A DNA stretch of 64,000 nt from Escherichia phage JacquesWildberger_Bas92 (PQ850610.1), one strand, 5' to 3'. Positions 34,106 to 43,661 are shown, numbered from the stretch's first letter. Numbers and translations: made by a program. Notes: generated by a model from the sequence alone, not told the origin.

Positions 34106-35950
34106 TTAGTGTGTATGCATCCAGTTTAACCCAATCTGACAATCAGAAGCCAGAGGACATTCCATGTTCAAGTACTCACCAGCCTTCTTAACACAAAGCT
34201 CGGTGTACTCTTTGAGTTTCTGTACATCATTACGGTTCACTGAGAACTGGCCCTCATCGTGCATATCAATTACCTTAGCACAACGAACTCCATCTTTCTC
34301 AATCCACTTGTTAAGGAACATCATAGCATATTTCATAACAACAGCACCAGCACATTGCAGGAGTGTGTTAAGGGCTTTATGAACCATAACCTTACCAGTG
34401 GCATCCCGTCTCATTGTAATCTTACGACCATCAACGCCAATCAAATACCCTTGAGCAGCTTTCTCTGTCATACGATCAATGAGGATTGCAATACATGGGT
34501 TCTCTGCCAAGAAGCGTGCTCGCATCACTGAACCTTCGTCAGCTCCACCACCTACGATTGAACCAAGCTTAGCATCACCAGCACCATAGTTAAACGCGTA
34601 GATAAACGTTTTAGCGTTGTCACGAGTAGGAAGACCAGCAAGTTTCTGGTTGTGGGAGTGGATATCACCTTCAAGAAGGATATCACGATACATAATAGCA
34701 GAAGCTAAACCACGTTCTGCCAGAGCTTTCTTAGCTGGATTATTCTCTTCGATTGCTTCAGCAAGCATATCCCTACACTCTTTAATGAGGTAGTGAGCGA
34801 GCATACGAAGTTCAAGTCCAGAACCATCATACCCTAAGAATACTTCTTTACCAGCGGGTATGTAATATTTGTAAGCACCTACAGGCTTATCTTTCTTCCC
34901 CGGCTTACCTTTCTCGTAAATTACGTTAGTACCTTTTCGTATATAACAACCATCAGGAACAACGTTAGTAATAACGAAAGGACGAGAGTGATCACTGTCT
35001 GAATTATAGTCAGACTCAAACAAACTGCGACACTCATGACCAAACAAACCACGGGAGGGAATATTAACCACGATACGATGTTTGAATCGAAAAGTTGGCG
35101 TAGCGCAGCTGTTAGCTTCTGCCGAAAGTTTACCATCTTCGCGTTCCTTTGCTATGAGTCCACTGATAAGACCTAGCCTGTGAGCCGCTACAACGCGCCT
35201 CTTAAGCAAACTTCCAACACTCCCTAGCTCGCCCCCTAACCCTTCTTCAAGAGTCTCCTCGAGGTTTGTAGGAGCTGTAGGCCACTTGTTTGAGGTAGCT
35301 AGTGCTATCTTAATCTCATCAAACGTGATAGGTCTACTTCGGTTAGGGTTTAAACCTAAACCAAACACATAAGCCTTCATATAGTTCTTAGTCTTAAACC
35401 TAAAATGCTTCTCTAAGAACCTCCTAATATCTGCGTCAACCATCTCGGCTGTCTGCTTCTGTTTAGCATTACCTCGCATCCAAGCTGAATACCATGCTTG
35501 GTATGTCCCATACTTTCGAATATCTTTCTTGATTTCAAAAGTATTCCAAGGTTTCTTTGATACGTTAAACTCTGGAGGAAGAAAACCCTCATCCATAAGG
35601 GCTTCTTTAACTCGTGCATCTTTCGATGGGTCAAAGTCTACATACTCAACACAGGTGAATGCTCCACCAATGTCTTCTCTCTTAAGGCCAACTCTATCAC
35701 AGTAGGCTTGAGGCCACTTCTGTAAAGCTCCAGACTTCTTAAATGGCTTCATATAAGTAGAGCCATCTAATCTCATCTTAGGTAAGAGAGGGATCAGTTC
35801 TTTGTCGATATTAACAATAATCTCTTTAAGGAGGTGAACATACCACCGAGCATTTCTTCGGTTGAAACTCACTCCGTGCTTCGCTTGCTTAGAGATTATA
35901 TCAGCGACAGTCATCTCTGTCAAAAATGGGAGAGCGTCCGGGTTGCTCAC
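34106..35950 (-). CDS. DNA polymerase, family A polymerase domain (no exonuclease domain)
   Basis: motif A DGSGLELR, motif B RDNAKTFIYAFNYGAG, motif C HDEGQF. Confidence 0.85.
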   Translation of the reverse strand: MSNPDALPFLTEMTVADIISKQAKHGVSFNRRNARWYVHLLKEIIVNIDKELIPLLPKMRLDGSTYMKPFKKSGALQKWPQAYCDRVGLKREDIGGAFTCVEYVDFDPSKDARVKEALMDEGFLPPEFNVSKKPWNTFEIKKDIRKYGTYQAWYSAWMRGNAKQKQTAEMVDADIRRFLEKHFRFKTKNYMKAYVFGLGLNPNRSRPITFDEIKIALATSNKWPTAPTNLEETLEEGLGGELGSVGSLLKRRVVAAHRLGLISGLIAKEREDGKLSAEANSCATPTFRFKHRIVVNIPSRGLFGHECRSLFESDYNSDSDHSRPFVITNVVPDGCYIRKGTNVIYEKGKPGKKDKPVGAYKYYIPAGKEVFLGYDGSGLELRMLAHYLIKECRDMLAEAIEENNPAKKALAERGLASAIMYRDILLEGDIHSHNQKLAGLPTRDNAKTFIYAFNYGAGDAKLGSIVGGGADEGSVMRARFLAENPCIAILIDRMTEKAAQGYLIGVDGRKITMRRDATGKVMVHKALNTLLQCAGAVVMKYAMMFLNKWIEKDGVRCAKVIDMHDEGQFSVNRNDVQKLKEYTELCVKKAGEYLNMECPLASDCQIGLNWMHTH

Positions 35951-35966
35951 TTTATACTCCTTTAAA

Positions 35967-36389
35967 TTATTGGTAAAGTAAATCTGTAAATGCTTGGTTG
36001 TCTTCTACTACATCTAGCAAGGTTGCTTCGTTACTATAAGACCTAACCGTCCCGTTGACAACTGTCCGAGTAGGAGAGGGAGGTGGTGTATGGTTAGCTC
36101 TAGCTTCGCGAGGTTGCTCTCGTACTAAATGAGCCATAGCCATTTGGTTAGCGACTTCTTCTCTTTCTCGAATAGCTCTCTGAATATAAGCTAGCTTCAT
36201 GCCCCAAGCTTCTTCAAATTCTTGAGGATGTTTGTCACTGATAACCACATATTGACGTTCAGGGATACCAGAGCGAATCTCTGATAAGAGTTCACAGAAC
36301 AAATCCAGTTCGTGTTCAGTGAGATTCATTTCGATATCATCCCACTTGAGAACTAGGAAACGGTTTTGATATCTAGTCGGTAATGGCAT
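35967..36389 (-). CDS. hypothetical protein
   Basis: 140-aa ORF. Confidence 0.35.
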   Translation of the reverse strand: MPLPTRYQNRFLVLKWDDIEMNLTEHELDLFCELLSEIRSGIPERQYVVISDKHPQEFEEAWGMKLAYIQRAIREREEVANQMAMAHLVREQPREARANHTPPPSPTRTVVNGTVRSYSNEATLLDVVEDNQAFTDLLYQ

Positions 36390-36392
36390 AGC

Positions 36393-41317: not shown

Positions 41318-41851
41318 TTACACACCTTTAGATGCAACTACACCTTCAGAGTTATTATAACGACCCTTCACTGCATAGGAATGCTCCCCTGCATGAGAGT
41401 GCTCAAACATGACCATCTGACCAACACGCATACCAGCACGAACTCGTAAGCTGTGGTGCTTTGTTACGTTATGAAATTCAAATGTCAGCTTACTGCTATT
41501 AAATCCAGCGTCTGCCCACCCAGCGTGGAGGTGGTTCAAACCACAACGAGCCATAGATGAACGCAGGACAAACAGGCTTGAAATGTTATCTGGAAGGTTA
41601 AACTCCTCCATAGAGTGAGCCAAGAAGAACTGACCCGGAGTGATAACCAAACCCTCTTCAGGAATTTTTACTTCCTTCCACTGAAGATTCTCTTTCGCAT
41701 CAATATCAACGATGCCATCAGCCTGTTCTTCAACAAGGATAGTATCACCAATACGGATATCCACACTAGCAGCGTTAACATACTTATGCTCCGCATCCAG
41801 ATAGCCATTGTCAATTACATCATGCAGTTCAATACTTCCTAGTAAACTCAT
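41318..41851 (-). CDS. dcd: dCTP deaminase
   Basis: VDIRIG, RSSMARCGL, GWADAGF and C-terminal Y-N-N-S-E-G-V-V-A-S pattern align with bacterial Dcd. Confidence 0.75.
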   Translation of the reverse strand: MSLLGSIELHDVIDNGYLDAEHKYVNAASVDIRIGDTILVEEQADGIVDIDAKENLQWKEVKIPEEGLVITPGQFFLAHSMEEFNLPDNISSLFVLRSSMARCGLNHLHAGWADAGFNSSKLTFEFHNVTKHHSLRVRAGMRVGQMVMFEHSHAGEHSYAVKGRYNNSEGVVASKGV

Positions 41852-41860
41852 TCTTATTCC

Positions 41861-43162
41861 TTAGTTGTTTGTTTCTATGTCAAAAGAGAATCCACGACCC
41901 GCTTCATCGGCAAACCGAGCTGTATGGGTTTGAGGCTCTAATACTTCAGGGTTGTTAGCAATAAAGCGAGCGGCGAGATTATCTTCCACATCTTGACTAG
42001 AGGGCTGACGTGCACTAACGTTGAAGCCATTCGGTCGACCACGAGAAGGACTAGACATCCATCTTTCCATAGAATCACTTGTAACACCAAGAGCTTCTTC
42101 AAAAGATGTTCTACGGGTAGAGCTTAGATTTCGTGCTTCATGTGCCACTCTTGCAGGGGTTACAAATAACCCTTCAATTGCATTATGTCGATTAGGTTCA
42201 TCTTCCCGACCAAGGAGATCACCTCCTGCATTAGTTGTTAAGTTTGTCAACCCTTCAGACCAATACGCACGAATCTGGCTAGAGCCATAAATGCCTGACA
42301 TTAACTGAATCTCTTCATAAGGTATATCAAAGAATCGACTCATGTCTCGGTTAACACAATACTGAGCACTTGTTGTATCCTCAATAAGAGCAACCTGACC
42401 CCGTTCGTTGACCAGATGACTAACCGGCTGAGGTGTGGGAAGGTGTCGAGTTTGGGCCATGTATTGATATGCAGCTGCTGGATAGGAAAATCTCAACACT
42501 TGCGAGTTAGGCCACTTCTTGTGAACATACCTGATTTCACGACTAGAAACAACCACTGGACAAGGGGCGGTCATAGCCAAGTATCCATGAGGGGTCATGA
42601 ATAAGTTATCAAGAGTCATCGCACCACGGCACATCATAGGAAAATTATCCAATACCTCTTCAATAGAAGTAGGATAATTAAACATGAATTGGATACGAAC
42701 ACCATTCCACTGAAACTCAATAATATCAGTGAATGTTAATTGAGAACCCCCAGCATATGGCTCATCTGTAGCTTCAACAAGAAGAGATGAATACTCAATA
42801 TCTTGTGATTCAAGCCATTCCTTCACATTACTTTCAATCTCCCGCCCAAGCATTTGCCACTGCTCGGTTGGGATAAAGGTGTTTCGAGTTCTTGGTGTTT
42901 GTCCTCTGACAATAAAGATATCGATGTCATGTGGAGCTGTGTTATTAAGAACAGCATCACGAATAGCCCCACCAGTAATGATAGGGCAAATACCATCTGG
43001 AATCAAGTTGTTGTTAATCAACTGTTCAATGAAGTGACGACCAACAGTGATATCAGGTTGTTGAGCAACCTTATCTTCAATTCGGTTAATCGGGATAACA
43101 ATCATTTTACATTTTCCAATATAATGAAGGTGGGTCATAAGGATCAAATCCTGTGTGTTCAC
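41861..43162 (-). CDS. pol-beta-superfamily nucleotidyltransferase (CCA-adding-enzyme-like head) with disordered C-terminal half
   Basis: [11 protein letters not shown]...HDIDIF matches GGxxRD...DxD NTase head motif. Confidence 0.5.
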
Positions 43163-43661
43163 ACAAGTATTTATAAACCTTAACAGTTAAGTTAACGTCC
43201 TGTTCACAGTAAGTAAACATATCTTCAGTGAAAGCATCCCATGCTTCCTCCTGCTCACCGTAATCTCCTTTAAGTTCCCCTAAGAACTCACCCCATTGCT
43301 TCAAACCGTGACCTCTTGGGCCATGTCTAGGGTCGCCTTTCGGATACTCAGGACTGTCACCAATACGGTCAGGTTTAAGATATCGACTAAGACACAGAGT
43401 GTCGAAGACGTTAAAACGATATTTAATCAGATTGGGATATATTTTCTTCAGAGCACAAAGGTCGAAGTCAATAATGTTATGGCCCACGAGCACATCAGCT
43501 TCTGTAAGTTTACGAATCCCATCTTCAATTTGGTGAGGCCTGTAGCCCCACCTTTCACCAGTTTCAACATCGAAAATGTAAATACACCATACTTTAGTTA
43601 TATCATCGTACAGTGCGTTACTTTCGATATCAAATGCAAACACTTTCTTTTTCTTTACCAC
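43107..43661 (-). CDS. 3'-5' exonuclease (DnaQ/T7 DNAP exo-domain-like), separate gene
   Basis: Exo I FDIESN, Exo II HNIIDFD, Exo III YCEQDV. Confidence 0.75.

Follow-up and report, generated by a model that had tools for sequence, protein, structure and literature searches.

Separate exonuclease and polymerase genes at the locus

In the genome of Escherichia phage JacquesWildberger_Bas92 (PQ850610.1), of which we analysed one stretch of 64,000 nucleotides (the window), a T7-like DNA polymerase appears from its sequence to be encoded in two pieces. One open reading frame (ORF) specifies a 3′–5′ exonuclease (exo) and another the polymerase domain (pol), with a gene for a thioredoxin between them (Table 1). 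All three ORFs are on the minus strand, on which coding in the window runs from ~28 kb onward. A distance of 7,156 bp separates the stop of exo from the start of pol, and 17 genes are annotated between exo and pol in the 99%-identical Escherichia phage AidaStucki_Bas93. A preliminary description of the window had placed the two genes ~7 kb apart with a thioredoxin between, which held at the exact coordinates. The 10-kb stretch around these genes shares 99.1% nucleotide identity with Bas93, 97.5% with phage LAMP and 91.8% with phiEco32, and 62 phage records cover at least 80% of it. By this sequence measure, the window belongs to a phiEco32-like podophage of the genus Kuravirus, subfamily Gordonclarkvirinae, and its gene order is identical to that of Bas93 and phiEco32.

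The 184-aa exo ORF matched Pfam DNA_pol_A_exo1 (E = 3.8e-9). Among PDB sequences it matched T7 gp5 only, over residues 3–185, i.e. the whole T7 exonuclease domain (E = 1.7e-11). The residues of Exo I (D11/E13), Exo II (H61/N62/D67) and Exo III (Y151/D155) were invariant across 34 homologues and, because the catalytic residues are invariant, the exonuclease looks functional. These results agree with the preliminary assignment of this ORF as a DnaQ-type exonuclease only, with T7-like Exo I–III motifs. The GTG start of exo overlaps the stop of the primase/helicase gene (GTGGTAA), with GGAG 7 nt upstream, and so the exo gene is still tied to the helicase gene. In almost every related locus with both genes, the helicase gene is directly upstream of exo.

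The 614-aa pol ORF matched Pfam DNA_pol_A over residues 361–611 (E = 4.7e-23). In phmmer searches against PDB sequences, T7 gp5 was the best match (E = 3e-33, compared with 4e-6 for Klenow), through T7 residues 496–704 and some weaker stretches. An AlphaFold2 model of pol (61 sequences; pLDDT 91.9, pTM 0.81) gave T7 gp5 structures as the top Foldseek hits (E = 3e-26), followed by Bst Pol I (~1e-16). Motif A (D375-GSGLELR), motif B (R443-DNAKTFIY451-AFNYG) and motif C (H564-D-E) were all present, and D375, R443/K447/Y451/Y455 and H564-D565-E566 aligned to T7 D475, R518/K522/Y526/Y530 and H653-D654-E655, placing a Tyr at the position of T7 Y526. By motifs, sequence and fold, pol belongs to the T7-like family A DNA polymerases (PolA cluster 5, cd08643), but its chain carries no 3′–5′ exonuclease domain, the exonuclease being a separate ORF 7,156 bp upstream.

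The 360 N-terminal residues of pol without Pfam coverage were considered as a site for a cryptic exonuclease domain. This idea was rejected by the alignment to T7 and by the AlphaFold2 model. In a multiple alignment of T7 gp5 and 20 homologues, pol residue 1 corresponded to ~T7 residue 205, just past the exonuclease domain, and the model starts with long helices, with no RNase-H-like sheet or exonuclease fold at the pol N-terminus. The uncovered part consists of thumb and palm together with clade-specific insertions, which are helical at ~127–236, beta-rich at ~309–370 (just before motif A) and helical at ~386–420. The proposal that this ORF encodes the family A polymerase domain only was therefore upheld, and the complete hidden exonuclease domain that the preliminary description had named as its possible refutation is absent from both the alignment and the model.

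Two further features of the pol gene were observed. A perfect extended −10 sigma-70 consensus promoter (TTGACA-17 nt-TGaTATAAT) lies at 35895–35923 (minus strand), within pol codons 10–19, and is the sole 12/12 match on either strand of the window. It is identical in phiEco32 and Bas93 and degraded in contig L004, a relative with 73% pol identity. The predicted transcript would begin ~60 nt inside the pol coding sequence. In addition, Bas93 (positions 3599–4307 of our locus L001), LUZ24 and several relatives carry a ~0.7-kb insertion with an endonuclease VII gene within pol motif B. The insertion follows residue 450, at the Tyr equivalent to T7 Y526 (~34598–34600 in the window), and is absent from the window and from phiEco32. 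Because of this insertion, many database homologues are 450-aa pol fragments. An Rfam search of the Bas93 insertion for a group I intron gave nothing at the gathering threshold.

Correspondence of exo and pol to the halves of T7 gp5

Several lines of evidence suggest that exo and pol are parts of one former enzyme. On the profile of PHROG 17 ('DNA polymerase'), exo covered positions 668–826 and pol positions 836–1233, which are consecutive. Single-chain relatives of ~600 aa (P0109–P0119) were 36–42% identical to exo in their N-terminal part and 38–43% identical to pol in the rest, i.e. the two proteins are about equally diverged from these relatives. With a profile built from the stand-alone exo family as query against 1.8 billion representatives, the best 150 matches included 78 proteins of at least 540 aa and 43 of at most 235 aa; among the long matches listed, the matched segment was at the N-terminus. 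The C-terminus of exo (GFDPYDPP) parallels T7 HYFPPEIDF, and together with the pol N-terminus SNPDALPFLTEMTVADIISKQ it corresponds to the T7 interdomain stretch HYFPPEIDFTDVGYTTFWSESLEAVDIEHRAAWLLAKQ, which places the break in the interdomain linker. The same genome therefore holds an exonuclease-only ORF with intact Exo I–III motifs and a polymerase-only ORF that begins at the linker. Judged by these alignments, the ORF pair represents the halves of a T7-gp5-like polymerase, broken between the exonuclease and polymerase domains.

Proofreading in trans is the sensible reading of these sequences, since the halves are T7-gp5-like, consecutive on PHROG 17, about equally diverged and broken at the linker. 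It is already written into RefSeq. In the phiEco32 record (NC_010324), gp53 is a 'DNA polymerase - lacks 5'-3' and 3'-5' exonuclease domains', gp74 is a 'DNA polymerase exonuclease subunit - contains 3'-5' exonuclease domain' and gp65 is a thioredoxin; the Bas93 record labels these genes likewise. The split has also been noted for LUZ24-like phages and phiEco32 (PMC3517423) and for all Kuravirus-like phages (PMC9965538). For an independently split polymerase, that of S-SBP1, AlphaFold2 reassembled exo and pol into the single-chain architecture (PMC10201439). In the searchable literature we found no biochemistry of the split polymerases, whether phiEco32-type or LUZ24-type, nor of the associated thioredoxin.

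The separation of the genes could instead mean that exo is an independent DnaQ-like nuclease, acting for example in host DNA breakdown, recombination or primer processing, and that pol works without intrinsic proofreading. The 7 kb between the genes would fit such a role, as would the apparent translational coupling of exo to the helicase gene and not to pol, and two terminator-like hairpins found between exo and pol by a consensus scan would leave the stoichiometry of the two proteins unenforced. Against an independent role, exo and pol have diverged to about the same extent from their fused relatives, the order helicase, exo, pol is conserved in all split lineages examined, and the facing ends of the two proteins still match the T7 interdomain linker. 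Moreover, the exonuclease domain is reported to be required for family A polymerases to be stable, and reassembly is predicted for the other split T7-like polymerase (PMC10201439). We therefore regard a free-standing nuclease as improbable, and we infer that exo and pol associate physically.

It is also conceivable that the split is apparent only, or does not outlast expression, and that a single chain results (assembly error, frameshift, or trans-splicing of protein or RNA). No evidence for this was found, although in some relatives the mobile endonuclease VII insertion in motif B, across which annotators have joined the polymerase, shows that splicing-type events occur in the family. Such explanations are effectively refuted here by the 7,156 bp and ~17 conserved genes between the halves, the identical arrangement in the 62 records, the start codon with its own Shine-Dalgarno sequence for each half, and a search for intein or intron signatures that came up empty, the sole Rfam hit in the window being a tRNA at another position.

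The hairpins, both strong, lie in intergenic gaps at 40143–40116 and 36712–36689 on the minus strand, with 12-bp and 10-bp stems followed by T-runs. As predicted terminators, they would put exo, thioredoxin and pol in three successive transcription units. The block between the halves opens with a nucleotidyltransferase-like gene, which begins 1 base past the exo stop (ATG, verified) and which directly follows exo in contig L004 as well. It is 79% identical to its phiEco32 counterpart, compared with 95–99% for neighbouring genes, and low-complexity sequence makes up its C-terminal half. The protein ends in a second Exo I motif, which was considered as a sign of a duplicated or remnant exo gene; this was rejected, as the DNA there has no similarity to the exo start and phiEco32 reads ISFEIDENN and then a stop at this point. 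Elsewhere in the block, the protein consisting of ligase domain Ia is named 'DNA ligase' in public records, and the adenylation and OB domains are missing from it.

Table 1. Features of the window discussed in the text (positions counted from its first letter)
Feature	Position	Strand	Basis
Primase/helicase, T7 gp4-like, 596 aa	43655..45445	-	Pfam DnaB_C + Toprim_2; annotated DNA primase/helicase in Bas93 and phiEco32
Stand-alone 3′–5′ proofreading exonuclease (predicted), 184 aa	43107..43661	-	T7 gp5 exonuclease domain orthologue; Exo I, II, III motifs
Nucleotidyltransferase-like, 414 aa	41861..43105	-	phrog_12715 nucleotidyltransferase, E 2e-221; weak Pfam PolyA_pol head domain
dCTP deaminase, within insert	41318..41851	-	Pfam DCD, E 3.6e-34
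Dps/ferritin-like DNA-binding protein, within insert	40150..40761	-	Pfam Ferritin, E 2.9e-7; RefSeq 'member of the Dps family'
Phage thioredoxin, 91 aa, CAPC, N-terminally truncated TrxA-like	39629..39904	-	PF00085
ThyX flavin-dependent thymidylate synthase, directly downstream of thioredoxin gene	38957..39613	-	Pfam Thy1, E 8.9e-44
NAD-dependent ligase domain Ia only, 118 aa	38598-38954	-	Pfam Nlig-Ia, E 2.5e-35
PhoH-like ATPase, within insert	37451..38194	-	Pfam PhoH, E 1.6e-56
Polymerase-only T7-like family A DNA polymerase, 614 aa: thumb, palm, fingers	34106..35950	-	Pfam DNA_pol_A
Pol thumb-tip insertion, residues ~55–109	35624..35788	-	Homologous to C-terminal two thirds of T7 thioredoxin-binding domain
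Pol catalytic core: motifs A (375–382), B (443–456), C (564–566)	34253..34828	-	Alignment to T7 gp5
Conserved 248-aa 'hypothetical' protein, OB-fold, acidic tail	31459-32205	-	Fold + tail motif
tRNA gene	57781-57852	-	Rfam RF00005, 59 bits

Beyond the polymerase, a further T7-like replisome component may be present in the 248-aa OB-fold protein. Its C-terminus reads EDDNDSPF, with an acidic end of the form DDDxPF in 29 of 29 homologues, and the tail of the primase/helicase ends in ADGASPW. In LUZ24 the corresponding tails are DDDTPI (helicase) and DDEDAPI (gp2.5-like single-stranded DNA-binding protein, SSB), and in T7 they are NDTDF (gp4) and EDGDF (gp2.5). Basic patches on gp5 are the docking sites of both tails in T7. 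Because the tails of helicase and SSB have a motif in common within each phage, the 248-aa protein is a candidate functional analogue of gp2.5, on the basis of its fold and its tail. With hhalign, no sequence similarity was detected between this ORF and T7 gp2.5 or LUZ24 gp37.

The phage thioredoxin and the polymerase thumb loop

The thioredoxin ORF matched PF00085 (E = 3.5e-13) and has its CAPC motif at residues 12–15, in keeping with the preliminary identification of a CAPC thioredoxin here. The protein aligns to residues 24–107 of E. coli TrxA, without the N-terminal strand and helix, and its cis-Pro loop (S-I-P) aligns to TrxA G74-I75-P76. Relative to TrxA it carries the changes W31Q, G33A and G74S, the last at a position where T7-resistant trxA mutations occur; such changes could be tolerated by a partner that had co-evolved. 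For co-occurrence we used an annotated phage collection, as a scan of viral contigs gave mostly distant marine T7-like phages, which are informative on the fused state of the polymerase and not on thioredoxin. Conservation of the thioredoxin extends to 126 phage records, and almost all of these come from bacteria that phiEco32-type (C3 morphotype) phages infect. The C3-morphotype phages that bear it infect Escherichia, Shigella, Salmonella, Cronobacter and Proteus, and there were a few weak matches in unrelated phages. This search gave no match in any record of a Vibrio, Aeromonas or Pseudomonas phage, and the LUZ24 genome is without a thioredoxin both by annotation and by tblastn.

In the polymerase, a thumb-tip insertion is located between the helices that flank the thioredoxin-binding domain (TBD) in T7, with ~55 aa compared with 77 aa in T7. 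By phmmer, pol residues 64–140 aligned to T7 296–368; the insertion corresponds to ~T7 283–338, and its C-terminal arm REDIGGAFTCVEYVDF aligned with REYVAGAPYTPVEHVVF of the T7 TBD. The local alignment of the insertion to the TBD scored 39.5, compared with 23.6 ± 4.9 for shuffled sequences, and 18 of 2000 shuffles reached 39.5. From the phmmer match and this shuffle-tested alignment, pol therefore contains a shortened TBD homologue, which in the AlphaFold2 model forms two strands and a helix (pLDDT 87–92). A TBD-like loop of the same length is also found in LUZ24-like and Vp_R1 polymerases.

The preliminary description had offered the phage thioredoxin as a possible dedicated processivity or redox partner of the polymerase. 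In its processivity form, the thioredoxin would sit on the TBD-like loop in place of host TrxA, giving an exo/pol/thioredoxin holoenzyme. The same idea was published as an explicit hypothesis for the related phage Privateer, whose thioredoxin would pair with the polymerase and raise its processivity (PMC7881722). The homology of the loop to the T7 TBD and the conservation of the thioredoxin in the phiEco32-type phages found are both in its favour, and proteomics of SU10 detected polymerase and thioredoxin alike (PMC4281155). However, an indirect test by co-occurrence of loop and thioredoxin was negative, because the loop has equal length in LUZ24-like polymerases although LUZ24 lacks the thioredoxin; similarly, the Vp_R1 polymerase has the loop and no Vibrio phage record matched the thioredoxin. 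The W31Q, G33A and G74S changes and the missing N-terminal strand and helix also count against this role, and TrxA itself, which T7 uses, is already supplied by the host. As the loop occurs in relatives without a phage thioredoxin, the processivity role is not supported in the form first proposed; the proposal restates an idea already in print, which our comparative evidence does not favour, and we consider it rather unlikely.

The only experimental study of a phage thioredoxin that we found in the literature concerns cyanophage Syn5, whose thioredoxin is redox-active and raises genome replication (bioRxiv 10.1101/2025.10.05.680603). Its authors concluded that the phage protein is unlikely to be a processivity factor, and AlphaFold3 put host thioredoxins, not the phage one, on the polymerase thumb (bioRxiv 10.1101/2025.10.05.680603). 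In the S-SBP1 polymerase, where the TBD is halved, no thioredoxin complex was predicted, and a TBD of at least 50 aa is present in ~29% of PolA cluster 5 members (PMC10201439, the PolA reclassification of Czernecki et al. 2023). In the window, the thioredoxin gene is directly upstream of thyX, in a stretch that also holds genes for dCTP deaminase and a Dps-like protein. The annotation of the 99%-identical Bas93 genome lists no ribonucleotide reductase, which would make the host reductase the natural redox client. By analogy with Syn5 and from this gene context, a redox role, or use of host TrxA by the polymerase, seems more likely than a dedicated processivity factor.

A more elaborate version would combine all of these elements in a three-gene holoenzyme, made up of pol, a proofreading subunit acting in trans and a truncated CAPC thioredoxin that replaces TrxA on the thumb, with the helicase and the OB-fold protein docking through their acidic SP(W/F) tails. 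We think this arrangement unlikely. If true, it would be the first case of a processivity thioredoxin encoded by a phage, and also the first split replicase of family A to be defined biochemically.

Origin of the split and comparison with known systems

Gene order was compared across 85 related loci. The order primase/helicase, exo, pol was the rule, and it was kept in all split lineages examined. Distant marine T7-like contigs (L013, 577 aa; L027, 543 aa) have exo and pol in a single ORF that follows the helicase gene directly. LUZ24 and a LUZ24-like contig have an exo ORF adjoining the helicase gene, and then 1.9–2.3 kb of small ORFs before pol. In L004, the gap between exo and pol is 8.5 kb and opens with the same nucleotidyltransferase, dCTP deaminase and thioredoxin genes as in the window. 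The most economical interpretation is that a single old fission took place at the linker, in the common ancestor of the LUZ24-like and phiEco32-like phages, followed by accumulation of genes at the break, and the series from one ORF through a 2-kb gap to a gap of 7 to 8.5 kb is a clean illustration of such a course. Upstream of the helicase gene, window positions 46591–56000 and LUZ24 7377–13075 are syntenic, both with a RimK-like ATP-grasp protein, gamma-glutamyl cyclotransferase, GFAT, an amidoligase and a COOH-NH2 ligase. Because these upstream blocks are syntenic, Kuravirus and LUZ24 share more than the polymerase.

We propose that fission at the linker between the exonuclease and polymerase domains split an ancestral T7-gp5-like polymerase gene, which encoded a single chain and directly followed the primase/helicase gene. 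The exo half would have stayed attached to the helicase gene, its start codon overlapping the helicase stop, and the gap between the halves would have become a landing site, now ~7.2 kb, for the nucleotidyltransferase, dCTP deaminase, Dps-like protein, thioredoxin, ThyX, ligase domain-Ia protein, PhoH and small ORFs. The 184-aa exo and the 614-aa pol would reassemble non-covalently into a T7-like proofreading polymerase that probably works with the gp4-like primase/helicase and the OB-fold protein with the acidic tail. Having kept a shortened TBD-like thumb loop, pol may bind a thioredoxin as T7 does. The phage thioredoxin would more likely be a redox helper for deoxynucleotide supply, e.g. 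a reductant of host ribonucleotide reductase, and less likely a dedicated processivity subunit. As a whole, including the redox role of the thioredoxin, we consider this explanation probable.

Some observations weigh against this account. The direction of change, fission here as opposed to fusion in T7, is read from how the fused and split forms are distributed, and the association of exo with pol is a deduction. The polymerase retains the TBD-like loop, whose C-terminal arm is clearly T7-like, and conservation of the thioredoxin in the C3-morphotype phages found would fit a structural partnership too. The redox-helper role is argued from gene context and analogy.

The split polymerase and its neighbouring thioredoxin are real, ordinary and already known. 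Both the observation and its interpretation are in the public record, as they are annotated in the RefSeq and Bas93 entries and discussed in several papers, and they carry little weight as a discovery. Their value is as a tractable E. coli system for asking how a family A replicase tolerates a separated proofreading domain, whether stoichiometry matters when the genes are in different transcription units, and whether a phage-encoded thioredoxin can assume the role that host TrxA has for T7.

Among known systems, cyanophage Syn5 is similar in being a T7-like phage with a thioredoxin encoded in its replication region, but it has its own ribonucleotide reductase, whereas none is annotated in Bas93. 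The PolA of S-SBP1-like cyanophages resembles the window in its exo/pol fission at the interdomain boundary, a TBD shortened by about half and the predicted reassembly (PMC10201439). There, however, the genes are still adjacent, with only a 1-nt frameshift event between them, after a recent, independent fission, in contrast to the window, where the halves are kilobases apart and the split is common to a large, old clade. The 'first time' claim in PMC10201439 left out the phiEco32 and LUZ24 cases reported in 2008–2012. T7 gp5 is the best match of both halves in sequence and fold and shares the Tyr at Y526, the gp4-type primase/helicase partner and the TBD-related thumb insertion. It differs as a single chain of 704 aa with a 77-aa TBD and host thioredoxin, and pol has three insertions (given above) that are extra relative to gp5.

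Closer relatives are the LUZ24-like Pseudomonas phages (Bruynoghevirus), in which gp25 is an 'exonuclease subunit' and gp34/gp36 is 'DNA polymerase part II', with the same split at the linker and the same gene order. The window pol is 35–52% identical to LUZ24 pol in two aligned segments and 40% identical to that of the LUZ24-like metagenomic contig (L005). LUZ24-like polymerases share the TBD-like loop and the palm insertion, but they are ~70 aa shorter, and the LUZ24 gap consists of ~2.3 kb of small ORFs without thioredoxin, ThyX, dCTP deaminase or nucleotidyltransferase. Closest of all is phiEco32 (NC_010324), where gp74, gp53 and gp65 are the same genes in the same order, as also in Bas93, LAMP and SU10. 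Identity to the phiEco32 proteins is 98% for pol, 95% for exo and 99% for the thioredoxin. Apart from the more divergent nucleotidyltransferase, and from the endonuclease VII insertion that Bas93 has in pol motif B and the window does not, phiEco32 and its kin differ from the window only at the strain level.

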